Shown here: positions 1,105 through 40,735 of the stretch, piece after piece
Numbering within the stretch: position 1 is the first letter of the stretch
Layout of the letters: each line of letters begins with the position of its first letter
Source of the DNA: Spirochaetota bacterium
GTDB lineage: Bacteria > Spirochaetota > GWE2-31-10 > MWDO01
Length of the DNA: 64,000 nt
Assembly: GCA_031549085.1 (NCBI GenBank)
Contig: JAVBQL010000001.1
Span: 119,486-183,485 of the forward strand
Reading direction: 5' to 3'
Translations under genes and position numbers: made by a program
Notes under the pieces: model-generated
The model's input: the letters and a program-made list of their open reading frames with translations, nothing else
Databases searched by the model: none
What the model was told of the DNA's origin: nothing

Positions 1105-1435
1105 GTTTTTTATATAACTCTGTTGTTATAAACATACTATTAATATCAAATTAGCAGTACAGTTATCTATTTAGTTTACTTGTCAGTAAGAAGGGATATA
1201 ATTAGCGAATGGTACTTAAAAAAGAAAAAAAAAGAAAAAGTAAAAATGTATAGGGCGGGATTTTATCCCCCCTATACATTTTTATTCTCTCTCTTTCTCT
1301 TTTTTTGAGTAGTGTTCGCTCGTTATATATCTATTTAATGATAAGTAATACAAAGGCTACAATTTTAACAACCCATTAACACTTGGATAGGATTAATTAT
1401 AATATAGAGTAATACAAAACCTTTTATAGCTATGA
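1105..1435. repeat. Family A foldback element, copy A1 (core palindrome about 1195-1331)
   Basis: Arms GCGAATGGTACTTAAAAAAGAAA...GTAAAAATGTATAGG and CCTATACATTTTTATTCTCTCTCTTTCTC...GAGTAGTGTTCGC surround a GGGAT-TTT-ATCCC tip. Flanks CTATTAATAT and TTGGATAGGATT are shared with the other copies. Confidence 0.9.
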
Positions 1436-1440
1436 GTATG

Positions 1441-2670
1441 CTATTTCTTCTTTCCAGCGTCCCGTTTAATTCTATCTGCAAGAGCAAGCAGGTCATCACC
1501 TTTCAATGCCCCGCCAATAAGCTCTGGCAATCTATTTGGTGTACAGGCAAAGCATGGAATACCAAGATTGCTAATCTTTTTCCCCAGCCTCTCATCATAG
1601 GCAGGTGTACCTCCGTCAGCCAAGGCAAGAAGCACCAAGACCGTCACACCTGACTCCCTCATCTCATCAAGCTGTCTTAAGAGGCCAGCCTCAACACCAC
1701 CCTCATAGAGATCTGATATAAGTATAAACATTGTCTTCTTTGGAGTCTTCACAAACTCACGACAATATTTGACTGATTTATTTATATCAGTTCCGCCTCC
1801 AAGCTGGACACCAAAGAGGATATCAACAGGATCAGTCCCGCAGGTCTCCGTTAGATCAACAACCTCTGTATCAAAAGCGACTATCCTTGTATCGATTGCT
1901 GGCATAGAGGCAAAGATTGAGCCCATAATTGATGAGTAGATAATACTATCAGCCATAGAGCCGCTCTGATCCATGTCGAGAATAATAGTCCACTCATTTG
2001 ACACACGCTTTCTCTCAAAAAAATAGAATTTTTCTGGGATAATACGTTTTTTATCTCTATCATAATTCTTTAAGTTTTTTTGGATTGTCTTTTTCCAGTC
2101 AGTGTTTGGCAGTGATGGAATCGGAGAGTGCCTCTTTCTGTTTAGAGCCCCTGTTACAGCCCTCTTTATGTCGTTCTCCATATACTGCATAATCTCATCA
2201 ACCAACGCCTGCACAATCTGTCTGGCCTGCTCTTTTGATTTCTTTGGTATATGTCCCTGAAGCGAGATGATGGTACTTACCATATTTATATCGGGCTTAA
2301 CATTAGCCAGTGTCTCCGGTTCAAAGAGAAGCTGTTTAAGCCCCTTCTTCTCTATTGCATCACTTTGGATAACACTTACCACATCTGTTGGAAAGTAGGT
2401 TCTGATATCAGCAAGCCACTTGGCAATATTTGGATATGATGGACCAAGCCCCGCACTTCGCCCTTGAGACTTTCCATCATCCATTGTATTATCATAGATA
2501 GCCGCCAACGCTTCATCCATAATAGAATCACTCTCACCAAGCAGACTTGCTCCACCGCACATAGAAGAGAGCTTCTCCTCTGAAGATTTTCCAAGGATCA
2601 GTCGCCATCTTTTTAAGCGAATACTGTTATCCTGTGCTGCATTTTTCTCATCTAATCTATTATCACTCAT
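1441..2670 (-). CDS. VWA domain protein (YehP/CoxE-like)
   Basis: RLKRWRLILG N-terminus; MIDAS DMDQSGSM, GGGTDI and LISDLYEG; last gene of the AAA operon. Confidence 0.9.
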   Translation of the reverse strand: MSDNRLDEKNAAQDNSIRLKRWRLILGKSSEEKLSSMCGGASLLGESDSIMDEALAAIYDNTMDDGKSQGRSAGLGPSYPNIAKWLADIRTYFPTDVVSVIQSDAIEKKGLKQLLFEPETLANVKPDINMVSTIISLQGHIPKKSKEQARQIVQALVDEIMQYMENDIKRAVTGALNRKRHSPIPSLPNTDWKKTIQKNLKNYDRDKKRIIPEKFYFFERKRVSNEWTIILDMDQSGSMADSIIYSSIMGSIFASMPAIDTRIVAFDTEVVDLTETCGTDPVDILFGVQLGGGTDINKSVKYCREFVKTPKKTMFILISDLYEGGVEAGLLRQLDEMRESGVTVLVLLALADGGTPAYDERLGKKISNLGIPCFACTPNRLPELIGGALKGDDLLALADRIKRDAGKKK

Positions 2671-5033
2671 ATAGAATCTCCAAAATCAAAGTCATTCAAG
2701 TCATCAAGAACCGACTCCTCCTCTTTTGTAAGCTCCTCTTGTAGAAACTCTGCGGCACTGTTTGAGTCAACTCCCCATAACTCCGCAAGTATTTCACAGA
2801 TACCGCTCTTCTCTGATGGTTCGAATGATGAGAAGGCACGTCTTAAACTTACAAGGGCGTGAGAGAACTCCTCATCATCAAGTATATTAAGATAGCCATC
2901 AAGCTCCCTCCATAGTGCAGCCCGTGACAAGAGGACATATCTGTTTCTTTTGCTTAGTCCCTCAAACCATAACGCCCCAGCCTCTGGCGTGTTCCCTTTT
3001 GAGAGGTGTCTTGAGACCTCCGTTGAGAGATCATTCTCTGTAACTTGATTTCTCTCAAGCAAAATAGAGAATGCAAATCCACAGAGGAGCGGATTTTTCT
3101 CATCAGACTTTGCAAGCGTAGTTAGCTCCTTAAGCCATATCTCATCGTTTACAATATCATAGTTCTCCTGTGATATATGGTGCATATTTGCAATGTCAGA
3201 AGCCATCTCTTTCGCCGCACTCTCATTGCATGATGATGCGGAGAGAAGCAGAAGCGACGCCTTTAGAAAGAGCTCTTTAAGTATAGGGATAACAAGCTTT
3301 GTATCAAACTTGCGGATAGTTCCATACTGAACGAGAAATGAGATCTCCCTTGCAGCCTTTGCTGAGTCGGAAAAGCTCTCAGAATCGGAGGCTAAAGACT
3401 GAAGCTTCTTAACAGCATCATGGATAGAGTCTGGAAGCTTGCACTCGCAGGCCTTTCTAACAAGTGAAGCGACCTCTATTACATCGTTGCTCTTTTCAAG
3501 CCTCTCCTTAAGTGCATATGCAGAGGCAGCCTCAATTGAGTCCCCATATAGCACAGACTCAACAAGCTCAATCTCAACCTCTGGTGTCCAGCACAAAATC
3601 CAATTTTCTGCCCATGAAGCACCCTCTCTCTTTCCAGCAGGCTTACCAAAATTTATATTAAGAAGTGTAAGTCTATTTAAAAATATCGACCGATCCAAAT
3701 CAAGAAAGGCGGCCTCATCACTCTGCACCCTTCTATTTTCGCGAAGGTCAAGAACCAGTGTCTCGGCAACAGTAGTCTTATATTTTGTTAACTTAAGCCT
3801 CTTAAGCTGGTAGTTCATATCGTCCTGTATAGGTGTTTGGCTTACTCCATCAGGAAGCGAGCCTATCCTTGTGCCAACATCAAGAGAGGCAAAGGCTGTT
3901 GCTGTCTCTGTTATAACTCCATTTCCCATTGTTGCAACGGCAGCATCATGCAAGTCTGAAAGTGTAGGTAAAATTCCGCCATGCAGATATTGAAGAGAGT
4001 TTGCAAGGCGAACCGCCTCTATAACGGTTGCAGTAGAGGCATAGCCATTCTTCTTTCGCAAAAGCTGATTAAGTTCTGAGAGATACTTTGATGGCAATGT
4101 TGAAAGGTTATCCCTCTCCATTGCATTAAACATCATCTCATAGTAGTATGGTGCATGGTTTCCAGCCCCATAGCCCGAGTGGGTGGAGAGCTTGTAATAT
4201 GAGTAGGGCATCAGTGTCATCTTCGTCTCTGCCTTTGGAAGCCCTTTTATCTCGCCATCACTCATAGGCTCATTTTCCATTAAGCCCTTAACATGGTATG
4301 CCCCTGTTATCACAACGATCTTCTCCGGAGCAAACCCCTCCTTGATGGCTTCTTTTATCTGCCGTTTCATATAGGCCTCCCTTAAGGTATTTATAGAGGA
4401 GCTTAGCGAGTCTGCCTCTCTCTCCTCATCCTCTGTAAGAAGCCTCATCTCTTTTGAGTGTGTTGCAACGCCATTCATATAGACATCTGTTGTAAGGTTA
4501 TGTTCAAAGTGGCGCTCCCAATAGGTATCATAATCTGTCTCCCCGCCAATTTTAGCTATTTTTTCATAGAGGTTATTACTATACTTATAGTATTCAATTC
4601 GCTTTTCAATCTCTTCTGGGAGCTCCTCCGTTTCACTTTCAAGTGCCTCATTTTTCAAATTGTTATGTTTTACGCGCTCCCTCTCCTGAAATCTATAGAG
4701 CGGCGCCTTTACATATGAGGGAAGATCTATAAAACGACAAATCTTTTTCTTCTTATTTGCCCAAAGAAGCGCCTGATACTCAGGTGAGTATAGTGCAAGA
4801 GGGTAGACTATTGAGTAGGCTGGTATCTCTGTGGTATAGCACAACACTGCTATTGGAGGCTTAACCCCACTCTTTGCAATATCGTTTATAAGAGCTGTTG
4901 TGTCTGAAGGCATCTCAATCAAAACGCAATCAGGCTTCACACTCTCCAAAAACCTCTTTATATGCCAAGCCCCAGCGGCAGAGAGGTGCCTAATACCAAA
5001 TAGCTTTACACCCTCTTTTGTAGTCCACTCCAT
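2667..5033 (-). CDS. DUF5682 / YehM-like protein
   Basis: GIRHLS, VLIEMP, YSPEYQAL, VVITGAYH and YGAG motifs. Start set at ATG 5033 (MEWTTKEG); ATG 5084 is an alternative that overlaps the upstream gene. 4-nt overlap with the VWA gene. Confidence 0.85.
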   Translation of the reverse strand: MEWTTKEGVKLFGIRHLSAAGAWHIKRFLESVKPDCVLIEMPSDTTALINDIAKSGVKPPIAVLCYTTEIPAYSIVYPLALYSPEYQALLWANKKKKICRFIDLPSYVKAPLYRFQERERVKHNNLKNEALESETEELPEEIEKRIEYYKYSNNLYEKIAKIGGETDYDTYWERHFEHNLTTDVYMNGVATHSKEMRLLTEDEEREADSLSSSINTLREAYMKRQIKEAIKEGFAPEKIVVITGAYHVKGLMENEPMSDGEIKGLPKAETKMTLMPYSYYKLSTHSGYGAGNHAPYYYEMMFNAMERDNLSTLPSKYLSELNQLLRKKNGYASTATVIEAVRLANSLQYLHGGILPTLSDLHDAAVATMGNGVITETATAFASLDVGTRIGSLPDGVSQTPIQDDMNYQLKRLKLTKYKTTVAETLVLDLRENRRVQSDEAAFLDLDRSIFLNRLTLLNINFGKPAGKREGASWAENWILCWTPEVEIELVESVLYGDSIEAASAYALKERLEKSNDVIEVASLVRKACECKLPDSIHDAVKKLQSLASDSESFSDSAKAAREISFLVQYGTIRKFDTKLVIPILKELFLKASLLLLSASSCNESAAKEMASDIANMHHISQENYDIVNDEIWLKELTTLAKSDEKNPLLCGFAFSILLERNQVTENDLSTEVSRHLSKGNTPEAGALWFEGLSKRNRYVLLSRAALWRELDGYLNILDDEEFSHALVSLRRAFSSFEPSEKSGICEILAELWGVDSNSAAEFLQEELTKEEESVLDDLNDFDFGDSI

Positions 5034-5044
5034 AGAGGATGTCT

Positions 5045-6142: not shown

Positions 6143-6182
6143 TTTATCTCCTTAATTTGTTTTTATCCTTTATTCTACCATC

Positions 6183-6215
6183 ACCCCTACCCTCTTCCTT
6201 CAAAGGAAGAGGGAG
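6183..6215. repeat. Family C short hairpin
   Basis: CACCCCTA leader, then CCCTCTTCCTT-CA-AAGGAAGAGGG; TTCAAA at the tip as in other copies. Confidence 0.7.
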
Positions 6216-6330
6216 ATAATAAAAATTTTGATTAAATTAACATTAAATATATATAATGGTTTTACATAGGGTATTTAAGTCAATTTTTGTTAACAACACA
6301 AGCGATAAAAAAAATCTTCACTATTAAAAG

Positions 6331-6407
6331 GGGGCATACAACGTAAGATAAGTCGATTCTATTGTACAAGTAAGATAGAATCTTTGTTATCTTACGTTGT
6401 ATGCCCC
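6331..6407. repeat. Family B nested hairpin, copy B1
   Basis: Perfect 21-bp stem GGGGCATACAACGTAAGATAA/TTATCTTACGTTGTATGCCCC, internal loop GTC/TTTG, inner stem GATTCTAT/ATAGAATC. Confidence 0.85.
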
Positions 6408-6432
6408 TTATCGCCATTAAATCCTAAACAAC

Positions 6433-8118: not shown

Positions 8119-8134
8119 AATATTCTCTCCTTAA

Positions 8135-9592: not shown

Positions 9593-9744
9593 GAATAGAG
9601 CTCCTTAAAAAGAAGAATATTAAAGAGATATTGTACGATTTTGTCAATTATGATGTCAATTAAATTTGGAAAAAAAGCTGATATTGGGAAAATATATCTA
9701 TTTTTGGTTATTTTTAGTAACATTTTGTCATTATATATGTATAT

Positions 9745-10075
9745 GGTTTTTTGTATAGTTCTGTTATCACAAATATACTATTAATATCAAACTAGCAGTA
9801 CAATTATCTGTCTAATTTACTTGTCAGTATGAAGATATAAAATGAGTAAATGCTACTCAAAAAAAAGAGAAAGAGAGAGAATAATTTTATATAGGTTGGG
9901 GTTATACCCCACCTATATAAAATTACTTTTTTTCTTTTTTCTTTCTTTTAAGTAACATTCGCTCGTTGTATATCCACTTAATGATATGGAAACCAGAAAA
10001 TAGGTACAAATCGCTTATTAAAGACTGGATAGGATTGTTTATAGTATAAAAGCTAAATAAAACCTTTTATGGTTA
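9745..10075. repeat. Family A foldback element, copy A2 (core about 9834-9974)
   Basis: Same flanks and orientation as A1 (ATACTATTAATATCAAA...TGGATAGGATT); tip GGGG-TTATA-CCCC. Confidence 0.9.
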
Positions 10076-10178
10076 TAAATTTACTATAATAATATAAAAA
10101 ATATAAAATTAAAAAAAGCTTTACAAAAAATTTTTAATAAATTAGCCTGCTTAAACAAACAATAAAGGACAGGCAAAT

Positions 10179-11483: not shown

Positions 11484-11519
11484 TTTTTTAAGCAGCATTC
11501 ATCTATTTTACTCACAGTG

Positions 11520-11830
11520 ATATAAGGACTTGTACAGCTTTTATATTATTAATAATCCTATCCAATATAAAATGAGTTATCAAGTCTGTTCTCTAGGTTA
11601 CTGGTCAGTAGTAGCAGATATAATGAGTGAATGGTACTCAAAAAAAAGAGAAAGAAAAAAGAAAAAGTAAAAATGTATAGGGGGGATAAAATCCCACCCT
11701 ATACATTTTTATCCTCTCTCTTTCTCTTTTTTTTGAGCAGCGTTTTCTCGTTGTATATCTTCGTACTGACTAGGAAACTAGAAAGTAAAATGTACTAATA
11801 GTTTAATATTAATAGTATATTTATAACAAG
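11520..11830. repeat. Family A foldback element, copy A3 (reverse orientation; core about 11617-11759)
   Basis: Left flank AATCCTATCCAA and right flank ATATTAATAGTATAT are the reverse complements of the A1 flanks; tip GGGAT-AAA-ATCCC. Confidence 0.9.
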
Positions 11831-11884
11831 TAAGCTTTTTGTGTAGCTTCATATTAATGATAATTAAATACAAGTAATCAAAAT

Positions 11885-11921
11885 AAAAAAAGTGAGGTTA
11901 AAAAATAACCTCACTTTTTTT
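11885..11921. terminator. Intrinsic terminator, probably bidirectional, after the GatA-AspRS gene
   Basis: AAAAAAAGTGAGGTTA-AAAAA-TAACCTCACTTTTTTT, about 15 nt from the stop codon at 11936. Confidence 0.8.
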
Positions 11922-11935
11922 ACTTTTTTTTAAAT

Positions 11936-14743
11936 TTATGGAGAAACTCTACCTATATCTCTTGGGAATAGACACGCCTCTCTGACATTTGATAGTCCAA
12001 GTAGTTTCATAGTAAATCTTTCAAGTCCCATCCCCAATCCGCCATGTGGACACATTCCAAACTTGAATACACTTAGATACTCTTTAAAGCTCTCGGGATT
12101 TACTCCAAAATCAATCATATTGTTCTTTAGCATCTCATATTCATGAATTCTCTGTCCGCCTGTTGTTATCTCAAGCCCCTTATACAAAAGATCAAAAGAT
12201 CTAGTATAGCCTGGCAATCTCTCATCAGGCATTGCATACACTGGTCTCTTTTTTATAGGGTAGCCAAGGATATAGACAAAAGGAGAATCATATCTCTTCT
12301 GTATATAGTCACATACAGTTCGTTCGCCCTCAGGAGAGAGATCTCCGTCAAGATCCTTAACTCCCTCACGAGCAGCAATATCAAGCGCCTCTATAAAGTG
12401 GATCTTTGGAAATTTCTCAGGGATAACAATATCTTCACCAAATACATCTTTTATCAATGTACCATATTTTTCTTTAATATTGGTAAGAATATATTTAATT
12501 AAAGATTCTTGTATATTAACAAGTGTTAGTTCAGAATCTATGAAGCCCATCTCAAAATCGAGAGATACATACTCATTTAGATGTCTAATCGTATTGTGAA
12601 TCTCTGCCCTAAAGACCGGCCCAACCTCAAACACCCTCTCAAAACCACTTCCAACCATAGTCTGCTTATAGAACTGCGGAGATTGTGCCAAGAAAGCCGC
12701 TCTATCAAAGTATTTCAACTCAAAAACGTTACTTCCCCCCTCTGTCCCGCTTGATACAATCTTTGATGTCTTTATCTCTGTGAAGTCATTATTTCTCAAA
12801 AACTCACCGAATAGTCTAACTATTTCACTCTGTATCTTAAAGACTGTCAAAATCTTTGGCATTCTAACACTGATCATTCTATCATCTAGAAGTACTGGAA
12901 GGCTTATCTCCTCATATTTACCATTTATAGAGATTGGAAGCTCTGCATTTGAGTGTCCTAGAATCTTAATTTTTGAAGCTCTAACCTCGATGCCATTAAA
13001 TGGACTCTTTGGCTCTTTGACAACAGTGCCATGAACATCAATAACTGTCTCAAGGTGAAGCTTCTCTGAAAGATTGTTCTCAAAGACAACTTGAGTAAAA
13101 CCACCTCTGTCACGCAGAACAATGAATTCTATTCCGCCAAGCTTTTGAATTTTATGAATCCAACCCTTAACAACAACCTCTTTTCCAATATATTCTGGAA
13201 GCTTTGAAGACAACACTCTTCTGCTATCAACAATTGGAGCATTATAAGAGTCTGATATCTTTTTAATATCATCTGAACTATATTTTATTGACTCTTTTAC
13301 CTCTTCAAACTCTTTTTTTTTGATTATTACTCTCTTCTCTCTCTTTTTAAGAGCCTTTATCTTTTTTGGATCAATATTTTTATCTATTTTAACCTCTGAA
13401 AAGATCTTATCAGCAGCACCAATAACAGTTAGGTCTGAAAACTGCTTTCCAACAAGCTCTATTCCAAATGGAGTATCATCAATGGTATCCACTGGAATCG
13501 CAGCTGACGGTGAACCAATTAGGTTTGCTATCAAAGATGAAGCAACTGATGGATAATCAACATTAGAGAGATTTAGGTCATTAAAAGCAGGAAGAATAAC
13601 AAGATCATACTTCTCAAATATAGCATCAAACTTCTGCTTGATTAATGTTCTAACCTTTTGTGCCTTTTTGAAATATTTATCATAGTTGACACTGCTTAAC
13701 ATCAAGTTTCCAAGCATAATCTCTCTCTTTACATCAAAACCAAAGCCCTGATCTCTTGTATCAAAGAGCATATCATTGTATGTCACTTGGTTTGATGCTC
13801 TAAAACCATAGTTTACACCATCATACTTGCCCAAACTTGATGAACTCTCAGCAAAAGCTATTATCTTATATGTAGCAACCAACTCTGAAACAAGATCAAA
13901 ATCAACCTCATCAACAGTTATACCCATATTTTTAATAAGAGAGAGTGCTTTGTTAAATGAGTTTTTCACTTTGGCATCCAAAGGAAGACTCTTTATTGAT
14001 GCGATCTTTAATGACTTAAACTCTTTAGCAGGAGACAGCTTTAGATTATCAGCTCCATATGTAGAAGAGTCATATCTATCCTCTCCCTTTAAGATATTTA
14101 ACAACGTGGCAGCTCCTGATAGATCTGAAGAGGCAAAAGAGACTCTATCCAATGATGGAGCATTGCTTACAACACCATTGCCCGAAACCAAAGATGGTGT
14201 TGGCAAGAAAGATACTTGATTATTTGAAGTAATAAAAAATCTGTTTTTACCAGTATCAAGAGAGACACTTAACACCCCCATATCCAAAGCAACACCACTT
14301 GCTGCACCTATTGTTGAGAGCTTTGTGTTATATGGGTTTACTGATATATGTTCTGTTGAACCAAAATCAAACTCCAAAGTTGTTGACTTTCCAACAACAA
14401 TTCCGCCAGCCTCTTTTATCCTCTTTACTATAGTAGATTCAAAGATTGGCATATAGTCAGAGAGCATTTTGCTTCCGCATGTTGTTGGATAGTTCATATC
14501 ATGTATGTTGTCAGCTATGATAATAGGAAGCCCATCGATATCGCTTAATGGCTTGTTCTCTCTCCATCTCTTATCTGATAGAGCCGCTCTATTAATTAAT
14601 TCATCTTTATTGCCGAAAATCACAAAGGACTCTAAAAAGATATCAAACTCCTCGATTTGATTGAGAGTCTTTTTCATAATCTCTTCACAAGAAGTTTTTT
14701 TAGACTTTAAGTCTTCTTTCAATTGATAAAAACTCTTTTCCAT
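11936..14743 (-). CDS. aspS: Fusion of a GatA-like amidase domain (catalytically degenerate, aa ~1-450) and a short-type, probably non-discriminating aspartyl-tRNA synthetase (aa ~508-935)
   Basis: N half shows GatA signatures (AESSSSLGKYDGVNYG, GFGFDVKREIMLG, YFKKAQKVRTLI). C half shows the OB fold KGWIHKIQKLGGIEFIVLRDRGG, LAQSPQFYKQ, motif 2 FRAEIHNTIRHLNEY and motif 3 PHGGLGMGLERF. One uninterrupted ORF. Confidence 0.92.
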   Translation of the reverse strand: MEKSFYQLKEDLKSKKTSCEEIMKKTLNQIEEFDIFLESFVIFGNKDELINRAALSDKRWRENKPLSDIDGLPIIIADNIHDMNYPTTCGSKMLSDYMPIFESTIVKRIKEAGGIVVGKSTTLEFDFGSTEHISVNPYNTKLSTIGAASGVALDMGVLSVSLDTGKNRFFITSNNQVSFLPTPSLVSGNGVVSNAPSLDRVSFASSDLSGAATLLNILKGEDRYDSSTYGADNLKLSPAKEFKSLKIASIKSLPLDAKVKNSFNKALSLIKNMGITVDEVDFDLVSELVATYKIIAFAESSSSLGKYDGVNYGFRASNQVTYNDMLFDTRDQGFGFDVKREIMLGNLMLSSVNYDKYFKKAQKVRTLIKQKFDAIFEKYDLVILPAFNDLNLSNVDYPSVASSLIANLIGSPSAAIPVDTIDDTPFGIELVGKQFSDLTVIGAADKIFSEVKIDKNIDPKKIKALKKREKRVIIKKKEFEEVKESIKYSSDDIKKISDSYNAPIVDSRRVLSSKLPEYIGKEVVVKGWIHKIQKLGGIEFIVLRDRGGFTQVVFENNLSEKLHLETVIDVHGTVVKEPKSPFNGIEVRASKIKILGHSNAELPISINGKYEEISLPVLLDDRMISVRMPKILTVFKIQSEIVRLFGEFLRNNDFTEIKTSKIVSSGTEGGSNVFELKYFDRAAFLAQSPQFYKQTMVGSGFERVFEVGPVFRAEIHNTIRHLNEYVSLDFEMGFIDSELTLVNIQESLIKYILTNIKEKYGTLIKDVFGEDIVIPEKFPKIHFIEALDIAAREGVKDLDGDLSPEGERTVCDYIQKRYDSPFVYILGYPIKKRPVYAMPDERLPGYTRSFDLLYKGLEITTGGQRIHEYEMLKNNMIDFGVNPESFKEYLSVFKFGMCPHGGLGMGLERFTMKLLGLSNVREACLFPRDIGRVSP

Positions 14744-15204: not shown

Positions 15205-15216
15205 TTAGTAATAAAA

Positions 15217-20948: not shown

Positions 20949-21230
20949 AATCACACACCGCCTTAAATGAACTCTCTCTATTTTTTAAATAGGTATATTC
21001 CAAATGGATATAATTATAGTATTATATCGAAATAAACTCTATAAAATATTACATGTTTTGCAGTAAAAGTTTCCTTCTTTGTCTTAAATTAAGTTATCTT
21101 TTAATAAATTTAAGACGTTACTTAATAAATAAAGTAGAAAGAGATTTTGACATATATTTTTTTTTATTATATTTTAAAATATTGGATTTCTTACAAAGTT
21201 TTTTAGTAGGGTGAGATTGTTTTTTCTAAA

Positions 21231-21257
21231 CCCCTAACCCCCTTTTCAAAAAGGGGG
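21231..21257. repeat. Family C short hairpin
   Basis: CCCCTAA leader plus CCCCCTTTTCAAAAAGGGGG, a 20-mer identical to the one at 39110. Confidence 0.8.
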
Positions 21258-21283
21258 CTTTAAGGAAAATGAAATAGTGTTCA

Positions 21284-27679: not shown

Positions 27680-29335
27680 ATGATACTTAATAAATTTTTA
27701 CCAAAGACAGACTTTAAGTCATATGATGACTTTGATGAAAACTTCAAATTAAATATACCTGACAACTTCAACTTTGCTTTTGATGTTGTTGATGTTATCG
27801 CTGACAAAGAGCCAAATAGAAAGGCTATCATCTGGACAGATGGCGAAAATGACAAGACAATAACCTTCAAAGAGCTGAAGGAGTATAGCAATAAGACTGC
27901 AAACTTTTTCAAAAGTATTGGAATAAAGAAGGGTGATAAGGTGATGCTTATACTAAAAAGAAAGCATCAGTTTTGGTATGCGATAATTGCGCTGCATAAA
28001 ATTGGAGCAATCGCAATACCAGCAACACACCTTCTAACAGAGAAAGATATTACATATAGAATTGATGCTGCTGGAATTGAGACAATATTGTCTGTTAATG
28101 AGTCTCCTATAATAGATGCTATTGATGAGAGCACAAAAAAATCTAAAATAATAAAAAATAGGATTGTTTTAGCAGATGAGAGAGAGGGCTTCTTAACATT
28201 CAACAGCGAAGTTGAGAAGCATAGTCCAATATTTAACCGCGGTACGGGAGCTGAGGATTGCGGCGGAAAAGAGCCAATGATTCTCTACTTCACATCTGGA
28301 ACAACAGGTCAGCCAAAGATGGCACTTCACAATTTTAACTACCCGCTTGGACATATCATCACAGCAAGATATTGGCATAATATAGAAGATGGTGATATAC
28401 ACCTAACAGTATCTGACACTGGCTGGGCAAAATCCCTATGGGGAAAACTCTATGGACAGTGGATCTGCGGCGGAGTTGTATTTGTATATGATTATGAAAA
28501 ATTTGCTCCAAAAAAGATGCTCGATATGATCTCAAAGTATAAGGTATCAACCTTCTGTGCACCGCCAACAATATATAGATATATTATAAAAGAGGATTTT
28601 ACAAAATATGATCTTTCTGGCTTAAAGTATGTTACAACAGCAGGAGAGGCTTTGAACCCTGAAATATTTACTCAATTTGAGCAGAAGACAGGCTTAAAAA
28701 TATATGAAGCCTTTGGACAGACAGAGCTTACACTTCTTTTAGGCACATTCTACTTTATGGAACCAAGACCGGGAGCTATGGGGCGCCCATCTCCGCAATA
28801 TGAGGTTGACTTGATAGATGAGAATGGAGAGACATGTGAGCTTGGAAAGACTGGGGAGATTGTTATAAGGACAGACAAGAAGATGCCTCCAGGGATCTTT
28901 TTGGGCTACTACAGAGATGAAGAGCTTACAAAAAAGGCGTGGAACAATGATGTCTACCATACAGGCGATCTTGCTTGGTGCGATGAAGATGGCTTCTACT
29001 GGTTTGTTGGGCGTGCTGATGATGTTATAAAGAGCTCTGGCTATCGAATTGGACCATTTGAGATTGAGAGTGTTCTATTGGAGCATCCATCAGTTCTTGA
29101 GTGTGCTGTTACTGGTGTTCCTGATCCAATGAGAGGGCAGACAGTAAAGGCAACTGTAGTTCTAAGCAATGGATATGAGCCATCTGAAGATTTGACAAAA
29201 GAGCTTCAGGATTTTGTTAAAAATATGACCGCCCCATATAAGTACCCAAGAATTATTGAGTATGTCAAGGAGCTTCCAAAGACAATAAGCGGAAAGATAA
29301 GAAGAGTTGAGATACGAGAGCATGACAAAAAGTAG
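27680..29335 (+). CDS. AMP-binding acyl-CoA synthetase (acetyl-CoA synthetase-like)
   Basis: YFTSGTTGQPK, YEAFGQTE, YHTGD, GRADDVIKSSGYRIGP, PKTISGKI. Confidence 0.95.
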   Translation: MILNKFLPKTDFKSYDDFDENFKLNIPDNFNFAFDVVDVIADKEPNRKAIIWTDGENDKTITFKELKEYSNKTANFFKSIGIKKGDKVMLILKRKHQFWYAIIALHKIGAIAIPATHLLTEKDITYRIDAAGIETILSVNESPIIDAIDESTKKSKIIKNRIVLADEREGFLTFNSEVEKHSPIFNRGTGAEDCGGKEPMILYFTSGTTGQPKMALHNFNYPLGHIITARYWHNIEDGDIHLTVSDTGWAKSLWGKLYGQWICGGVVFVYDYEKFAPKKMLDMISKYKVSTFCAPPTIYRYIIKEDFTKYDLSGLKYVTTAGEALNPEIFTQFEQKTGLKIYEAFGQTELTLLLGTFYFMEPRPGAMGRPSPQYEVDLIDENGETCELGKTGEIVIRTDKKMPPGIFLGYYRDEELTKKAWNNDVYHTGDLAWCDEDGFYWFVGRADDVIKSSGYRIGPFEIESVLLEHPSVLECAVTGVPDPMRGQTVKATVVLSNGYEPSEDLTKELQDFVKNMTAPYKYPRIIEYVKELPKTISGKIRRVEIREHDKK

Positions 29336-29363
29336 TGTGCAATTAAAAACTAAAGGGTCTGTT

Positions 29364-30605
29364 ATGAAGATTAGAGCAGTTCTATTCTCTATTTTTGTTC
29401 TTTCTCTGATTTTATCAAGCTGTGACTATGAAGTTGAAACCAATGCCAACGCCCCAAAATATGATTATATAGGTAGTTACTATGATGATCTGGCAATGGT
29501 ACGTCTAAATGGAAAATATGGTTTTGTGGATATATATGGAGAGGTAGCAGTTCCAATTATTTATGACACTGCTGATAGCTTTGAGAATGGCTTGGGCAAA
29601 GTGGGATTCTATAATGAAGATAGCTATAGCAACTATAAATATGGCTTTGTTAATAAAAAAGGTGAAGTGGTTGTTCCTATTATCTACAACTATGTACGAT
29701 GCTACACTAATGATGAAATCAAATTAATTTTTGTAAGTCTAAATGGAAAATATGGTTATCTTGATACAAATGGGCTTGAAGTAGTTCCTACTATTTATGA
29801 GAATATTTCCAGTTTTTATAATAAAAGAGCAGTAGTAAAACTAAACGGAAAGTATGGTATTATAGGTATTGCTGGAAATGTAATTATTCCCACTATTTAT
29901 GATTATATTTCAACCTTTGTTGATAGCAATCTAGTTGGTGTTGGGGTCAGCAATAAATATGGCCTTATAGATATGGATAATCAAGTGGTAATTCCAATTA
30001 TATATGATGATATATGGCTCTCTCCCCATGATCTAATAACAGTTGTTCAAAATGGCAAGTATGGACTTGTGAATAGAAGCCATCAAATAGTAGTTCCGAT
30101 TATTTATGATAATATGACTCTTTATGATAGCCTAATTCGTGTTAAACAAAACTATAAGTGGGGTTATTTAGACTTAAATGGAAATGTAATTCTTCCCATT
30201 ATTTATGATGGCATAGAGCCTTTCAGTTATGAGTTATCGAGAGTAAAACTTAAGGGTAAGTATGGTTATATAGATAAAAATGGACAGATAGTAATTCCTA
30301 TTATCTACAATGAAGCACAATATTTTAATGATGATGAGCTATGTTTAGTGAGGCTAATTGATAAGTGGGGATTTATTGATACAAGTGGAAATGAAATAGT
30401 TCCTGTTACTTATGATTTTGCAGATAATTTTTCAGGTGGATTGGCAAGAGTAAGATTAAATGATAAGTGGGGGTTTGTTGATAAAAATAGTGTAGTAATT
30501 ATCCCTATTAGCTATGATTATGCAAACAATTTTTCTTATGGTAGAGCTCTTGTAAATTTAGGTAATGACTCTTTCTATATTGATAAGGATGGCAATAAAA
30601 TATAA
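29364..30605 (+). CDS. WG-repeat lipoprotein
   Basis: Lipobox-like ILSSC after ATG 29364; about 10 repeats of (Y/W)G(F/Y/L)(I/V/L)D..G..(V/I)(I/V)P..Y. Confidence 0.92.
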   Translation: MKIRAVLFSIFVLSLILSSCDYEVETNANAPKYDYIGSYYDDLAMVRLNGKYGFVDIYGEVAVPIIYDTADSFENGLGKVGFYNEDSYSNYKYGFVNKKGEVVVPIIYNYVRCYTNDEIKLIFVSLNGKYGYLDTNGLEVVPTIYENISSFYNKRAVVKLNGKYGIIGIAGNVIIPTIYDYISTFVDSNLVGVGVSNKYGLIDMDNQVVIPIIYDDIWLSPHDLITVVQNGKYGLVNRSHQIVVPIIYDNMTLYDSLIRVKQNYKWGYLDLNGNVILPIIYDGIEPFSYELSRVKLKGKYGYIDKNGQIVIPIIYNEAQYFNDDELCLVRLIDKWGFIDTSGNEIVPVTYDFADNFSGGLARVRLNDKWGFVDKNSVVIIPISYDYANNFSYGRALVNLGNDSFYIDKDGNKI

Positions 30606-30724
30606 TCACCCCTATATTTACTGAACTTGATAAACTTTTTTTAAATTAAAAACTTACAATCCTTCTGTATAAGATATTTATCAGAAAGAAGGCACACATA
30701 AAAAAGAAAAAAAAGGAGTTTTTT

Positions 30725-32811: not shown

Positions 32812-32871
32812 TTGATTATGTAGCAATTGCTCCCTACCTAAACATTCGTTAAACTTAATTTTAGCAACTAC

Positions 32872-33160
32872 CCTATCAATATTTAATTGGTTGTGCTGTT
32901 TCATCTTTAGCTTACTTATAAGTACAAGAATATATAATGAGAAAACGCTACTTAAAAGAGAAAGAGAGAGAATTAAAATATATAGCGGGGTGTTACCTTA
33001 AGCCTATATATTTTAACTTTTTTTTCTTTCTTTTTTAAGTAGCGTTTTCTCGTTATATATGTTGCTAATGACCAGTAACTCAGAAAATAAGTTTAATAAC
33101 TCATTCAAGATTGGATAGGATTAATTATATAATAGAGATGTATGAAAAAGCATTATCTGT
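32872..33160. repeat. Family A foldback element, copy A4 (core about 32929-33060)
   Basis: GAGAAAACGCTACTTAAAA.../...TTTTAAGTAGCGTTTTCTC arms; right flank TTGGATAGGATTAATT. Confidence 0.9.
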
Positions 33161-33260
33161 ACATGATATCAAAATAAAATAGTGATAGTATAAAAAAGCT
33201 TCAAAGCTAATTTAAGCTCTGAAGCCTGTAAATATCTAAATCTATAATACTAAAACAATC

Positions 33261-34388: not shown

Positions 34389-34715
34389 TACTTGTTCTCC
34401 TAATAAACAATATAACCCATTATAAAACCTTTTTATAACAAAAGTCAACTTGATTTTTTTAATAATATTTTTTTTATTTTTTTTTATTTTTGCCTGCACA
34501 CTCTTTTTGATAAATATCTATTGAAAAATGTATTTTCAGTCTCTAATTGAAATATAAACTCCTTTCAAAAACAAGCTGCATAATTAAAAAAAAACTAAAA
34601 CATTAAAATTATTCCACCATAGCTATTTTTAAATTGATCTTTTATCTTTTTTTTGATAGAAACTTTTTAGTTTAGGATTAAATTGTTTTACTATCATTTT
34701 TTTGGAGATTTTTTT

Positions 34716-36038: not shown

Positions 36039-36044
36039 GTTGTA

Positions 36045-36430
36045 GTTGGCATACATACAGAAAATGCTTTTTCATACATCTTTATTATATCAATAATCTC
36101 ATCCAAGCTTTAATAAGTAGTTAGGTATCGTTTTTGTGTTACTTGTCATTACGTAGAGCTATAACGAGAGAACGCTACTCAAAAAAGAGAAAGAAGAGAG
36201 AATAATTTTGTATAGGTGGGGGGGGTAATCAAAAAAAGAGCCTAATTTTAAAAATATGAAAATAAAACAAAAAGGACGTGGCACGCAAAAAAAGCCTATA
36301 CAAAATTACTTTTCTTTTTTTTCTCTCTTTTTTAGGTACCATTCGCTCATTATATCTGTTCGTGCTGATAAGTAAACTAGGTATAAGGTTTTAATAGCTT
36401 GTTTAATATTAATAATACACTCATAATAAC
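36045..36430. repeat. Family A foldback element, copy A5 (reverse orientation, enlarged loop of about 78 nt)
   Basis: AACGCTACTCAAAAAAGAGAAAG...TATAGG and CCTATACAAAATTAC...GGTACCATTCGCTC arms; flanks ATCTCATCCAA and ATATTAATAA. Confidence 0.88.
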
Positions 36431-36568
36431 TAAGCTACCCTAATAATTAAATAGTATAAAATTGCTAAGCTAAAAGAGAGAAAAATAAAGAGTCAAAAAG
36501 TTAAATAGTAAAATGGCCAATTCCGATAAAACCACTATATACAACTAAAGGGTCTCTGCAAAAATAAA

Positions 36569-39085
36569 ATGAAAACTAATGGAAAAAAAATAAGATTTTT
36601 AACAATCTCTGCTTTTGCAACATTTTTTCTCTTCTCACTATTCCTAATTGTTGATAATGACTTTCTAAAGAATAAATTCTTTGCAAACTTTTCTATCTCC
36701 TACAATAGCTTTCTAAACCGAATCTTTGGAAGCTTTGGAGAGCTATATATAATTTTGGGACTCTTTATATGTGTTGTATTACTTATAAAAATTAAGCGTT
36801 ATAAAAAAATATCTCTATTTTTTGGAATAACACTGCTTCTTTTATTCATATCATCATTCACAGAGTTTTTAGGTGCAAAAATATATAATGGCGGTCTACT
36901 TGGGAAAAATCTCTCAAAATTACTCTTAACAGAGACTCCTTTTCTCAATTTTTCTATCTATTTTTTATGGGGAACAGCATCATTGTTTTTAATTTTACTA
37001 CCAATAAAAAATATTTTGGTAAAGGGATTAACATATATAACCTTTTCTATAATTCAATTTATTGAGAAATTAAAAGATTACTTTGGGGCATATAAAAATG
37101 AGCTCTCTAAAGAGCGAGCCAGTGTCCCTTTTATATCTAAAATTGTGTATGAAGATGATAATAAAATAACTGAAATACCTATATTTTCCATCAAAAAAAA
37201 TGATAAGCCTAAAAAATTTGTCTATAAAGAGGAGACAAATACAAGTGTATATTATGAAGAAGAAAAAGATAATCAAGGCAATAGAGGAAAAGCAGAGAAA
37301 AAAGTAGATAGTACCAATAGTACAGAGGAGTATTTCAAAAAACTAAAGGAGCACTGGCCAGAAAAGTGGAAACATGAAGAGAATAATGAAATTGTTATTG
37401 AAGATTCATCATTGGTAAATAAAAATGAACCAAACAAGAGAGATATTCAAAAAATGGATAGCGAAAAAATCCTATATTATAATGAAAGCAACTTTGCTAA
37501 TAAGTTTAATAATAGAGAGGAAGAATTTAAAAATAGCTATATAAAAAGTGAAATAGACAATATATATATAGAAGCTGACGATCTTGATATAAGTATAGAT
37601 GATGAGTATGACGAGGAGAATTATGATATCTCTCATGAAGCTATTTTAAACAAAAAAGATCATGAGGTTTTAAATAAATTTCCAAACTCAGCGATTCTAT
37701 CAAAACAGCTAAGTTTTGATAATGGCTCTTCAAAAGAGGAGGAGGCAGAATCTTCAAGAATATTGGAGGCAACTCTCTTTGAATTTGGTATAAAAGCAGA
37801 GGTTGTAGATATAATCCATGGGCCAGTGGTTACACTATATAAACTTATCCCAGCACCAGGTATAAAACTCTCAAGAATTGAGGGGCTCTCAACAAACCTT
37901 GCGCTGCGCCTTGCTGCACAATCTATAAGGATTATTGCTCCAATCCCAGGAGAAAAAGTTGTTGGAATAGAGATTCCAAATAGAATTAGAGAGCTGGTTA
38001 GCTTCAGCGATATAATAAACAGTAAAGAGTTTAAAAATAGCAAATATAATATTCCAATAGGTCTTGGAAAAGATATCTATGGAAACACAATAGTTGCGGA
38101 TCTATATAAGATGCCTCACATCTTGATAGCAGGGGCCACTGGAGCAGGTAAATCTGTCTGTGTAAATGGCTTTATCTCATCAATACTATTCTCAAAGAGC
38201 CCTGAAGATGTAAGGCTTATACTTATTGACCCAAAAATTGTTGAACTTAAACCATATAACAATATTCCTCACCTTTTAACTCCAGTCATTACAGAGTCAA
38301 AAAAGGCATTGATGGCATTGAAATATCTACTATATGAAATGGAGAGAAGGTACTCACTTCTTGATGAGATGGGTGTTAGAGATATTGTTGAGTATAGAAA
38401 AATGAATAAGGTTAAGCCTCACTTTGAGAACCTGCCTTTTATAGTTGCATTTGTTGATGAATTTGCAGATCTAATGACAACAAGCGGAAAAGATGTAGAG
38501 ATTATCTTCTCTCGTCTTGCAGCAAAGGCTCGTGCCATTGGTATACTTCTAGTTTTGGCAACCCAGCGTCCATCAGCTGATGTGATAACTGGTCTTATAA
38601 AGGCCAATATTCCATCACGTATAGCATTTCAAGTTATCTCACTTCAGGATAGCAGAATTATATTGGATCAAAAGGGTGCTGAAAAACTTTTAGGGCAGGG
38701 AGATATGCTATATTTGGGCGGTTCGCAGCCCTTTCCTATCCGTGTCCAAGGAGCATATCTATCCAAAGATGAGGTTGATAATATTGCAAACCACTGGAAA
38801 GAGCTCTTTCCCCCTCAATATGTGAACATAGAGGAGATTATCTCTGAAGATGATGACGAAGAGGATAGCATCGACTTTGATGGCGAAAGCAGAGACCCTC
38901 TCTTTGATGAGGCTGTATCTATTGTGAAGCAGACAAGAAAAGCCTCCGCCTCATATCTACAAAGAAGATTAAGCATTGGCTACAACAGAGCTGCAAGGCT
39001 TGTTGAAGAGATGGAGGAGATGGGGATTGTTGGCCCACAGCGCGGAGCAAAGGCTAGAGAGGTCATTGGAAGCGATTTTGAATAG
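36569..39085 (+). CDS. ftsK: DNA translocase FtsK/SpoIIIE
   Basis: N-terminal TM segments, IRIIAPIPG, AGATGAGKS, LIDPK, VDEFAD, LATQRPS and gamma domain ASASYLQRRLSIGYNRAAR. Confidence 0.97.
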   Translation: MKTNGKKIRFLTISAFATFFLFSLFLIVDNDFLKNKFFANFSISYNSFLNRIFGSFGELYIILGLFICVVLLIKIKRYKKISLFFGITLLLLFISSFTEFLGAKIYNGGLLGKNLSKLLLTETPFLNFSIYFLWGTASLFLILLPIKNILVKGLTYITFSIIQFIEKLKDYFGAYKNELSKERASVPFISKIVYEDDNKITEIPIFSIKKNDKPKKFVYKEETNTSVYYEEEKDNQGNRGKAEKKVDSTNSTEEYFKKLKEHWPEKWKHEENNEIVIEDSSLVNKNEPNKRDIQKMDSEKILYYNESNFANKFNNREEEFKNSYIKSEIDNIYIEADDLDISIDDEYDEENYDISHEAILNKKDHEVLNKFPNSAILSKQLSFDNGSSKEEEAESSRILEATLFEFGIKAEVVDIIHGPVVTLYKLIPAPGIKLSRIEGLSTNLALRLAAQSIRIIAPIPGEKVVGIEIPNRIRELVSFSDIINSKEFKNSKYNIPIGLGKDIYGNTIVADLYKMPHILIAGATGAGKSVCVNGFISSILFSKSPEDVRLILIDPKIVELKPYNNIPHLLTPVITESKKALMALKYLLYEMERRYSLLDEMGVRDIVEYRKMNKVKPHFENLPFIVAFVDEFADLMTTSGKDVEIIFSRLAAKARAIGILLVLATQRPSADVITGLIKANIPSRIAFQVISLQDSRIILDQKGAEKLLGQGDMLYLGGSQPFPIRVQGAYLSKDEVDNIANHWKELFPPQYVNIEEIISEDDDEEDSIDFDGESRDPLFDEAVSIVKQTRKASASYLQRRLSIGYNRAARLVEEMEEMGIVGPQRGAKAREVIGSDFE

Positions 39086-39100
39086 AGTTATTTTTACTAA

Positions 39101-39131
39101 TCCCCCTCTCCCCCTTTTCAAAAAGGGGGAT
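39101..39131. repeat. Family C short hairpin after the ftsK stop
   Basis: CCCCCTCT leader plus CCCCCTTTTCAAAAAGGGGG. Confidence 0.8.
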
Positions 39132-39175
39132 ATTTTTATCAAATAGAGACAAAAATATTAAATAAGGTATTTAGA

Positions 39176-39272
39176 GGGAGTTGGGATAAGAGTATATAAG
39201 TCGATTTTGTTCGATTTTTGCTTCCTGCAAAAATATACAAAATCTTTGTTATATCCCCTTATCTCAACTCCC
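39176..39272. repeat. Family B nested hairpin, copy B4
   Basis: GGGAGTTGGGATAAG/CTTATCTCAACTCCC outer stem with TAAGTCGATTTT...AAAATCTTTGTTA core. Confidence 0.82.
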
Positions 39273-39404
39273 AACCAACTAAAGTCTGCTCTAATATTTG
39301 CAATAAACTAACTTTTTATTTACCCACCATAGTTGGAAAGACAATATCATTTTTACATAAAATATATGTCCAAAAGGACATCACACGCAAAAAAATAAAA
39401 AAAA

Positions 39405-40280
39405 TTATACATCAACTCCAAGAAATTTTTTAACTGCCACTCCTATCAAGAAAGATAAAATCATTACGCTTGATGTAATTATTGCCATCTCCAAAAATCT
39501 CCTTCTGAAAGGAAGATCTTTTGCAACTGATATATAGTAATTAAAAGCCAATATTATAACAAAAACCATCGCAAGCATTATTATTAGCGCCTCTATATAC
39601 ATATGTTTAGGAAGAAGACAATATGGAAGTATCAACAACACAAGAGTAGAAAAATAGGCAAGCCCTGTGGAGAGCCCAGATCTTACTGCATGAGGCTTTC
39701 CCTCTGCACGGCTTGACAAATACTCACTTGATGTCATAGAAAAGACTGCCGCCATACCAGATATAAGTGTTGTCATTGCGGTAAAATGGGTGTTTTGATA
39801 GGCAAAGGTAAAACCAACAAGAGTCCCAGATATACCAATAAGAGCATCATTAAGCCCAAGTATTATTGAGCCAACAAATTTCAGACGCTCTTCATCAATC
39901 AGTTCAATAAACTCAACTTTGTGATTTAGCTCATCTGTAAGTATAGTTGAAGCCTCTGGAATAAGCTCTATTAACTTTTTAAAAGTTTTCTCATCTTTCA
40001 AAAAATCATCTGTCATATTCTCTAAAAATTTTATTACAAAAGTATACCCCAAAAGATGAGATAAAAAAACAAACCAATTAATTGCAAAATAGTTGGGTTT
40101 AACATCAACTTTTGTATAGCTCTTCCATATATTGTAGTGTTTTCCCTCCTCATTTGCCATCTCTTCCAATATTTTTCTATCTCTCTCCCCTTTAACACTA
40201 GATTTTATTTTAAGAATAATATTTTGTTCAGTAATCTCTCTTTTCTGCAGTTTTTTAACAAATTTAAGCATCTTATCCAA
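39405..40280 (-). CDS. VIT1/CCC1-family transporter with rubrerythrin-like N-terminus
   Basis: QKREITE, EEGKHY, GLNDAL, MTSSEYLS and FRRRFLEM; TTG start with GGAGG RBS. Confidence 0.9.
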   Translation of the reverse strand: MDKMLKFVKKLQKREITEQNIILKIKSSVKGERDRKILEEMANEEGKHYNIWKSYTKVDVKPNYFAINWFVFLSHLLGYTFVIKFLENMTDDFLKDEKTFKKLIELIPEASTILTDELNHKVEFIELIDEERLKFVGSIILGLNDALIGISGTLVGFTFAYQNTHFTAMTTLISGMAAVFSMTSSEYLSSRAEGKPHAVRSGLSTGLAYFSTLVLLILPYCLLPKHMYIEALIIMLAMVFVIILAFNYYISVAKDLPFRRRFLEMAIITSSVMILSFLIGVAVKKFLGVDV

Positions 40281-40424
40281 AGTATTAAGCCTCCATTTCC
40301 CACTTCAATTTCATTGAATCTTTATATCATTTTTTTATCAATTTATAAAACTTTTAAAATATAACTTTTTGTGAAAATAAGTATCTATAGTAATGATAAA
40401 ATTTTATACTTAATGACAGGTACG

Positions 40425-40735
40425 TGTAAAATATTAATACCAAGCCGGATGTAGAGCTTTATACTTAGTTTGCTAGTCAGCACGAAAATATACAACGAGA
40501 AAACATCACTCAAAAAAAGAGAAAGAGAGAGAATAAAAATATATATGAGCAGGAGCTTCGCTCCTCTCATATATATTTTTACTTTTTCTTTTTTCTTTCT
40601 TTTTTGAGTAGCGTTTTCTCGTTACATCTGTTACTAATGACAAGGAAGCCAGAAAGTAAGTTTAATATAGCTCATTATAACTTGGATAAGTCTATTAGAA
40701 TAATAGAGCTATTTGAAAAGCGGTGTCAGTATGAA
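40425..40735. repeat. Family A foldback element, copy A6 (core about 40487-40628)
   Basis: AACGAGAAAACATCACTCAAAAAAAGAGAAAGAGAGAGAATAAAAATATATATGAG and CTCATATATATTTTTAC...GAGTAGCGTTTTCTCGTT arms; tip GGAGC-TTC-GCTCC. Confidence 0.9.

Follow-up and report, generated by a model that had tools for sequence, protein, structure and literature searches.

A large foldback repeat with a terminator-like centre, probably a non-autonomous mobile element, in part of the chromosome of one uncultured spirochaete

The pneumococcal SPRITE is a repeat of terminator-like architecture whose stem and T tract are much longer than those of normal terminators (PMC3049150); it lies close to the 3' ends of coding sequences, clusters and nests with other repeats, and has no known transposase or target duplication (PMC3049150; review PMC10969869). 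[quoted passage not shown] For REP, ERIC, Correia and SPRITE elements, effects on mRNA stability or processing, or on termination, have been reported or proposed (PMC10969869, PMC3049150). Here we analyse a stretch of 64,000 nt from the assembly of a Spirochaetota bacterium (GCA_031549085.1, contig JAVBQL010000001.1; the window, C30:119486-183485 in our contig numbering), in which an earlier note, made from the letters alone, had described six copies of a foldback repeat, family A. The combined evidence leads us to propose, at a probability of about 0.6, that family A is a lineage-restricted, non-coding and modular foldback of the MITE kind with a terminator-like centre, and hence a large spirochaete analogue of SPRITE.

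The six copies are present at the places named in the note. The repeat finder returns six-copy direct-repeat families (D3, D4, D7) there, together with long inverted matches between opposite-strand copies; the copies can be aligned over ~290 nt; and a profile (nhmmer) built on the six finds six matches in the window and no seventh. Inverted arms within the elements are detected by the repeat finder as well (I13, 67 nt at 78%; I20, 42 nt at 79%; I22, 40 nt at 80%). The size of about 300 bp proposed in the note holds for the alignable core, ~290-300 nt in the profile; the true ends lie farther out, and the total element comprises ~330-345 bp including terminal modules. In the consensus, drawn from 42 near-full copies, the order inward is a terminal module, asymmetric sides (CTATTAATAT and TTGGATAGGATT, both present as the note had them), inverted arms of ~85 nt, purine/pyrimidine tracts and the tip hairpin. 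Terminal inverted repeats are formed by TTTTTGTATAGCTTTAT at one end and its reverse complement ATAAAGCTATACAAAAA at the other, and beyond them extends a further inverted repeat of 10-20 nt that comes in two flavours, CCTTATATAG or GTGTTATCATTATGA. A second, young subfamily has the terminal module AATGGTYAGTTTCAA / TGAAGCTAACCATT; the end sequences of family A are TTTTTGTATAGC or AATGGTYAGTTTCAA.

The purine tract opposite a pyrimidine tract, already noticed before, is seen in the sequences of the copies. These tracts, 20-25 nt long, are of two types, P1 (AAAAAAGAGAAAGAGAGAGAATAA) and P2 (AAAAGAAAGAAAAAAAGAAAAAGTAAA, the latter read as the pyrimidine tract), which are not exact complements. 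Wherever both can be typed, a copy has one P1 and one P2 tract, with a single exception, and the sides that the two occupy relative to the outer ends swap (~15 versus 10 of 28 copies). The tip hairpin, of 17-22 bp and with a GC tip, is framed by an A run and a T run; in 68 copy centres, A-rich and T-rich tracts of at least 20 nt are found around stems of 15-22 bp, and the folds mostly range from -15 to -28 kcal/mol. The tips are GC-rich and pair, as had been stated, but they are not freely variable from copy to copy: overall there are 4-5 discrete variants, each seen in several copies, namely TATAGGYKGGGG/CCCCRSCCTATA, GGCGGGG/CCTTAAGCC, TTTAGAGGGG/CCCCTCTAAA, GAGCAGGAGC/GCTCCTCTC and an insert-bearing form. 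The G and C positions of the arms are 80-90% conserved, in a genome of 32% GC. No conserved reading frame was found in family A, the frames being those inspected in the window copies, and a small conserved peptide, be it in the pyrimidine tract or in the RNA family C introduced below, was ruled out by frames that are not conserved.

Across the assembly (2.68 Mb, 88% complete, with breaks at repeats) the profile search recovers 95 loci, ~70 of them including the centre, and 151 recognisable arms. All of the loci (95/95) are intergenic with unrelated flanks. Median pairwise identity within the family is 65%, and most copies are judged old because the nearest neighbour of most of them is merely 70-76% identical. 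The proposal of a non-autonomous, MITE-type mobile repeat put forward in the note gains support from the number of loci, their unrelated flanks, the terminal inverted repeats and the nested and abutting copies; family A shares with MITEs a size of 290-345 bp, a non-coding and multi-copy nature, the intergenic location and the terminal inverted repeats. Tandem copies abut at ...ATAAAG directly followed by TTTTTTGTATAGC, and other repeats are nested in family A tips. Sharp ends, unrelated flanks, abutting copies, an inserted repeat and a young subfamily can together be read as indirect signs of past mobility. The family was absent from 40 relatives searched by BLAST, five same-family genomes included; degenerate 22-mers, run against 185,579 species (one genome apiece) and against JGI metagenomes, gave single chance matches, all rejected by the profile, and no match to family A was found in plasmid and phage collections. 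As judged from these searches, family A appears to be lineage-restricted and new in sequence, known from one uncultured spirochaete genome. In exact-protein look-ups the organism's proteins occur in one public run, SRR23967709, and contigs, including those of that run, end inside foldback centres. The host, a spirochaete, has three genes for FlaA sheath proteins, found in 0 of 14 control genomes, as well as three FlaB-type flagellin paralogues.

Under selection of the structure in each copy, a left arm would be expected to match its own right arm more closely than right arms from elsewhere in the family. Arm complementarity is 0.772 with the element's own partner and 0.771 with the arms of other copies, at a left-to-left identity of 0.775, and covariation is confined to the tip hairpin; a structured RNA that extends across the arms, of the kind the note had considered, is not supported. 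In an alignment of 28 copies counted over the full 88-pair hairpin, 80.7% of the cells pair, as compared to 79.7% with partners shuffled and 45-52% with partners slid by 1-3 columns. Real and shuffled pairing being nearly equal, arm pairing is a property of the consensus and is not maintained copy by copy. The arms are a DNA palindrome, not an RNA structure. The outer helix is 76.8% paired, with many positions unpaired in about half of the copies; the tip-proximal helix reaches 87.7%, with both partners altered (AU to UA, AU to GC) in 13 of its 32 pairs. Covariation is real in the tip hairpin only. Hairpin-templated correction of quasi-palindromes during replication is known from E. coli genetics, and the covariation of the tip can arise from it or from selection for the hairpin, as the data fit both. 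Patterns for four tip variants give 37 matches in the genome, all inside family A loci. Tip variants being confined to family A, the tips are the family's own and not captured host terminators; the possibility that arms were added around pre-existing host terminators was rejected, since the variants never occur outside A. Rfam gave no match to family A in the window at the gathering threshold, and for three further loci, searched with E up to 1, it gave only subthreshold eukaryotic miRNA-hairpin models, which match the foldback, and weak chance matches. Family A is a clean case of a palindrome whose outer arms decay as the tip stays paired, and it separates evidence of the DNA-palindrome type from that of the RNA-structure type.

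Measured from the profile limits, the median distance to a gene's stop codon is 50 nt at the near end of a copy, as compared to 134 nt to a start codon at the far end; with terminal modules included, many copies start no more than ~10-20 nt past the stop. Convergent spacers are enriched (27% of copies versus a background of 12%), and the orientation of copies is close to random. In the window all six copies are intergenic, occur in both orientations and are distributed two each over tandem, divergent and convergent spacers, in agreement with the note. From that distribution the note had gathered that the copies are not simply terminators, a statement that needs softening given a centre of A run, hairpin and T run at a median 50 nt past stop codons. 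The centre reads the same from both strands and would, by its architecture and placement, be terminator-like. We suggest that family A DNA was copied to ~95 places by an enzyme acting in trans and absent from this 88%-complete assembly, as the pattern of copies implies. Most copies would be old and probably immobile by now, and the young subfamily with the different terminal module would have been copied fairly recently along with a cargo RNA gene. Survival of copies appears to be restricted almost entirely to positions 10-60 nt behind stop codons. Transcription of the upstream gene would therefore run into copies located just behind its stop codon, and their centre could stop or cap the resulting transcript from either direction. 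The tip may be kept paired by selection for termination or capping, or by hairpin-templated palindrome repair, as the outer arms decay; recombination between arms would serve to reshuffle the centre.

A number of observations weigh against this proposal. The family A tips escape a simple terminator scan owing to a bulge in the GC stem and to the AT-rich lower stem that lies between it and the T run. Some neighbour genes retain a terminator of their own (e.g., at 11884-11922). No transposase partner was found in the assembly. Y1/HUH (PF01797) had 0 matches in the organism's own genome, 6 of 14 control genomes being positive; DDE_Tnp_1 (PF01609) and the IS630-type DDE_3 (PF13358) had no matches in the 88%-complete assembly; the TnpB zinc ribbon (PF07282) was matched below the cut-off only; the sole rve (PF00665) protein is a Mu-like phage transposase adjoining a MuB-like ATPase; and the genome holds no multi-copy family of transposase-like open reading frames. 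Target duplications of 2-9 nt at offsets 0-29, sought at 17 copies anchored at both ends, gave no signal (best z 2.9 over ~1000 settings), in a test whose power is limited by old copies and AT-rich flanks. The genes hom, ftsK and malK are unlinked in the nearest relatives, leaving no synteny for an empty-site comparison, for which the genus consists of this genome only and the organism is represented in one sequencing run. Lastly, the strong regional clustering of the copies is atypical of MITEs.

The lack of a transposase in the window, correctly remarked in the note, extends to its vicinity, where none was found either. The HUH- or REPIN-type mobilisation that the note had entertained is not supported by the sequence: no Y1, RAYT or IS200 domain is present in the assembly, and family A, being AT-rich, ~300 bp long and equipped with terminal inverted repeats, is not a REP-type unit. 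The two full young composites described below show no target duplication. A search for paralogous empty sites in the genome returned none, and the same search uncovered family E. At ~C17:51005-51340 (L089) we observe a Mu-like transposase with the domains rve, DDE_2 and Mu-transpos_C, next to which stand a MuB-like AAA protein and a sigma-70 region 4 protein; the locus is probably a Mu-type prophage without link to family A.

The ~95 copies are restricted to roughly a third to half of the chromosome. Contig C20 has 37 copies, all within 50-330 kb, and C30 has 11, all within 109-160 kb; contigs without any copy total ~1.3 Mb. Occupancy reaches 32 of 222 spacers (14%) in the densest zone. A binning artefact as the cause of the uneven spread was rejected, as A-rich and A-free contigs interleave in the tetranucleotide profiles of their coding DNA and the clustering is seen within single contigs. 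The large A-free contigs C15 and C23 have a strong and uniform GC skew; in the A-rich contigs the skew is mixed, and so is gene orientation in the three of them that were profiled for gene strands (C20, C30 and C17). Possibly the A-rich zone constitutes a separate region of the chromosome. For annotation it is of importance that family A repeats break the assembly and occupy spacers that could otherwise be read as regulatory regions.

Two families of predicted structured RNA are associated with family A, and they are the part of this study most worth following up. Family C is a GC-rich unit of ~270 nt in 16 copies (15 full and one fragment) that adjoins many A copies. Its loci are C30:110769-111044 (L011 1770-2045) and C30:117487-117785; positions 51707, 115998, 116660, 269222 and 319868 of C20; and C21:1582, C13:76170, C31:8973, C9:94132, C5:53690, C5:95755, C5:96183 and C6:90745. 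A conserved promoter, TTGATT-16-TATAAT, and a T-run end delimit a predicted structured RNA of ~235 nt, whose fold is significant on the promoter strand (z -4.2); 13 of the 47 pairs predicted by RNAalifold keep pairing via double changes. A possible alternative pairing of GCATGCCC with GGGCATGC, ahead of a U run, shows covariation in those copies that were inspected by eye. Rfam gave no match to family C even at E = 10, and a covariance model of it found none in 19 other genomes of the order. Family C either has a full A copy on each side or occupies the exact centre of a single A copy, with one arm on either side. Two inverted A-C-A composites lie 6.7 kb apart on C30 and share a patch of 328 nt (the A right end and the whole C) that is ~95% identical, within A bodies that are ~72% identical (C30:110700-111030 = L011 1700-2030; C30:117450-117780 = L011 8450-8780). 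With ~95% identity in C as against ~72% in the A bodies, C and A have partly separate histories, and the patch looks like a recent gene conversion or a separate movement of C.

Family E is a unit of ~535 nt in ~10 copies, of which seven are full and the rest contig-end fragments (L114 430-1020; L115 440-1010; L116 193-752; L117, L118, L119, L120). It has an invariant promoter, TTGATA-16-TATAAT, and a predicted structured RNA of ~255 nt, and it was absent from 20 relatives. Sequence identity of the E units across loci, with the query copy as reference, is 84-88%, and E is always found between two direct-orientation A copies of the young subfamily (AATGGTYAGTTTCAA / TGAAGCTAACCATT), which are 85-92% identical and as such the youngest A copies. 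Two complete A-E-A composites, with flanks that are unrelated, have 1.18 kb in common; such composites cause the small-contig breaks. The local alignment of C and E scores 59, as compared to 26 +/- 4 for shuffled sequence, and the two have in common the motifs RYATGCCYGC and ACCTTTGC...GGGCATRC, the latter leading into a T run; by these similarities C and E are homologous. Guidance of insertion by pairing of the C/E RNA with A ends is unsupported, as the complementarity comprises 8-9 nt and is not above that of shuffled sequence. It would still be conceivable, and we regard it as quite improbable, that A, C and E constitute one protein-less mobile system in which the C/E RNA (230-255 nt) is active in copying, targeting or maintenance, perhaps as a ribozyme, a guide or the partner of a host enzyme; were copying driven by RNA in such a way, the lack of a transposase would thereby be explained. 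If the C/E RNA is more than cargo, this would amount to a new route by which non-coding DNA spreads among bacterial genomes' sites. A role as cargo only would still leave a new multi-copy RNA family to be characterised, undescribed, lineage-specific and fairly recently copied.

The same association lends itself to another interpretation, in which the foldbacks are the shell of an element that carries an RNA gene and the 300-bp form is a cargo-less derivative having the hairpin in place of the C or E gene. The exact placement of C between the arms at C9:94132, C5:95755, C5:96183 and C6:90745 would fit well, as would the invariable enclosure of E by direct-orientation A copies that are also the youngest, the homology of C and E, and the TTGAT(T/A)-16-TATAAT promoter and T-run end that both possess. 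However, ~70 of the 95 loci are without cargo, the upstream arm-C junctions vary among loci, the copy of C at C13:76170 is on a contig without A, and the different identities of C and A bodies in the C30 composites indicate separate histories there; an unrelated repeat also lands in A tips, so the tip may be a mere insertion hot spot. We therefore consider the shell interpretation rather unlikely. Retention by the host is a further possibility to be weighed, with family A being a bidirectional terminator or a 3' untranslated-region hairpin that supports mRNA stability or processing (e.g., as an RNase III substrate) and is kept by selection as opposed to selfish spread. Proximity to stop codons on the 3' side, with 100-230 nt left before the next gene, is well accommodated by such a function, and so are the covarying tip and the conservation of G and C positions in the arms, while the REP, ERIC, Correia and SPRITE elements furnish precedents. 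What makes this unlikely in our assessment is that half of the genome has no copies and even the densest zone has just 14% of its spacers occupied, that orientation and spacer type are unconstrained and the outer arms decay without compensation, that some genes beside copies retain their own terminator, and that the family is absent from all relatives.

Two other explanations attach to particular parts of the element, and both must be judged highly improbable. Each element could comprise two convergent small-RNA genes of ~80 nt with a purine-rich 5' part, transcribed from arm promoters (TTTACT-16-TATAAT) to a shared terminator in the tip. A purine tract of the A-R-N kind, followed by a hairpin and a U run, is the look of an Hfq-type small RNA, which the arrangement in family A resembles, and promoter-like sites are called in the arms of copy 1 (1175-1202) and copy 2 (9816-9843). 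Yet a -10 box of the TAnAAT type is present in just 24% of the 151 arms, 34 of 61 paired elements lack it in either arm, its critical last T is C in about half of the arms, and there is no Rfam match. The pronounced clustering, which persists within contigs (C30, 109-160 kb; C20, 50-330 kb) and is not explained by binning, would in turn be consistent with non-B DNA, either a cruciform or H-DNA from the purine-pyrimidine tracts, that marks or organises one chromosomal domain; the long foldback with its tracts of 20-25 nt would supply the required sequence. Intrastrand triplexes, however, require three consecutive blocks (PMC4666352), of which family A has two per strand, so that the triplex DNA envisaged in the note is unlikely; P1 and P2 tracts differ and pair imperfectly, arm complementarity is ~77% and decaying, there is no orientation bias, and local transposition together with insertion tolerance accounts for the clustering equally well. 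The reading as a MITE-like foldback with a terminator-like centre remains the best, and SPRITE is its closest functional analogue.

In the window, copy 1 (1096-1429, plus strand; profile match 1118-1411, score 246.6; terminal extensions read from the sequence) lies in a tandem spacer, its edge 11 nt from the stop codon of the minus-strand gene 1441-2670. Its tip (1242-1284), AAAAATGTATAGGGCGGGAT-TTT-ATCCCCCCTATACATTTTT, has the succession of A run, hairpin and T run, and the 38-nt centre holding the tip folds at -20.2 kcal/mol. Copy 2 (9740-10078, plus; 9759-10053, score 248.9) lies in a divergent spacer and has a tip hairpin (9880-9926) of the GGTTGGGG / CCCCACC variant (-20.7 kcal/mol). Copy 3 (11520-11860, minus; 11537-11835, score 260.7) occupies a convergent spacer, with the GGGGGGAT / ATCCCACCC variant in its tip hairpin (11667-11710); the native bidirectional terminator found by the terminator scan at 11884-11922 is separate from it. 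Copy 4 (32852-33160, plus; 32852-33143, score 233.8), again in a convergent spacer, has a degenerate left terminal module and a tip hairpin (32973-33017) of the GCGGGGTG / CCTTAAGC variant, a close form of which, GGCGGGG / CCTTAAGCC, is matched at 12 loci. Copy 5 (36055-36445, minus; 36074-36435, score 231.8), in the tandem spacer from hom to ftsK, owes its greater length to an unrelated 68-nt insert in its tip (36226-36293), part of another dispersed repeat (core GGACGTGGCACGC); the insert recurs in the tips of six further A copies. Copy 6 (40405-40735, plus; 40418-40713, score 240.8) lies in a divergent spacer, also with a degenerate left terminal module, and its tip hairpin (40533-40580) is of the GAGCAGGAGC / GCTCCTCTC variant (-20.1 kcal/mol). 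The genes around the window copies are ordinary ones and encode, according to Pfam, a VWA/CoxE-like protein, MatE, a GatA-AspRS fusion, MalK, homoserine dehydrogenase, FtsK and a VIT-family protein.

With up to two mismatches allowed, the near-palindromic core GCGTGCCACGTCC of a third dispersed repeat has 34 matches in the genome. Seven are inside A loci, mostly in the tip and including window copy 5, and 27 are elsewhere, A-free contigs included; examples are window 36226-36293, C5:97733, C15:169117, C2:50972 and C10:32230. Three further places in the window (21219-21262, 39091-39134 and 60455-60498; repeat-finder family D8) have a C-rich tract followed by a hairpin of the CCCCC-TTTTCAAAAA-GGGGG type. 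The open reading frame 29307-30605 contains 7-8 tandem coding repeats of 102-105 nt (window 29499-30539) in a pattern like WG (KWG-type); WG-like repeat proteins flank several A copies and form large paralogue families in the genome. On the minus strand, 11936-14743 is a single open reading frame of 935 amino acids that combines, by Pfam, an N-terminal amidase (GatA-like) domain with a class II Asp/Lys/Asn tRNA synthetase domain with OB fold in its C-terminal part.

Regarding its relationship to known systems, family A contributes a case from a spirochaete to the small group of foldback repeats that are terminator-like. Like SPRITE, it is AT-rich, non-coding and interspersed, and it has a long stem and a long T tract with A-run and T-run ends; both elements are found near the 3' ends of coding sequences, cluster and nest with other repeats, are without an identified transposase or target duplication, and have a narrow species range and mostly old copies. 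The likeness is one of functional class, not of homology, as there is no sequence similarity. Family A has roughly double the length (300-345 bp, as compared to <200 bp in SPRITE) and is more numerous (~95 versus 30 copies); in contrast to SPRITE, it has extra asymmetric outer modules with terminal inverted repeats and purine/pyrimidine tracts of two types, occupies a part of the chromosome only, and forms brackets around genes for structured RNA. With the classical MITEs (Correia/NEMIS, ERIC, RUP, Nezha, RPE; PMC10969869, PMC3184786) family A shares the small size, the non-coding nature, the intergenic location, the terminal inverted repeats, the strong folding and the occurrence in both orientations. 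It differs from them in having neither a detected target-site duplication nor an insertion sequence with matching ends, in being palindromic almost entirely and not at its ends alone, and in copies that are far more diverged.

The REP/BIME and REPIN-RAYT systems resemble family A in being mosaic, modular intergenic palindromes located after genes, with inverted pairs and with hairpins thought to be recognised by structure; REP, however, is a GC-rich palindrome of 20-40 nt tied to a Y1 (RAYT) gene, whereas family A is AT-rich, ~300 bp long and present in a genome without a Y1 domain. Repeats forming intrastrand triplexes (BoxC/PIT/TMECO; Holder et al. 2015, PMC4666352) are likewise intergenic and without strand bias, have purine/pyrimidine blocks around a hairpin, and are sometimes clustered regionally. 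The TMECO unit is GC-rich, ~35 nt long and composed of three consecutive blocks (PMC4666352), in distinction to family A with two AT-rich blocks per strand and a 40-nt hairpin between them. Lastly, the BOX element of S. pneumoniae (boxA-boxB-boxC) is, like family A, built from modules that can be exchanged, varies in length, forms composite RNA structures and clusters with other repeats. Its modules are other ones; a long foldback around a terminator-like centre is lacking, and BOX is not known to bracket independent promoter-driven RNA genes. The unusual traits of family A are its size, the presence of two types of tract, the restriction to one part of the chromosome and the link with genes for structured RNA.

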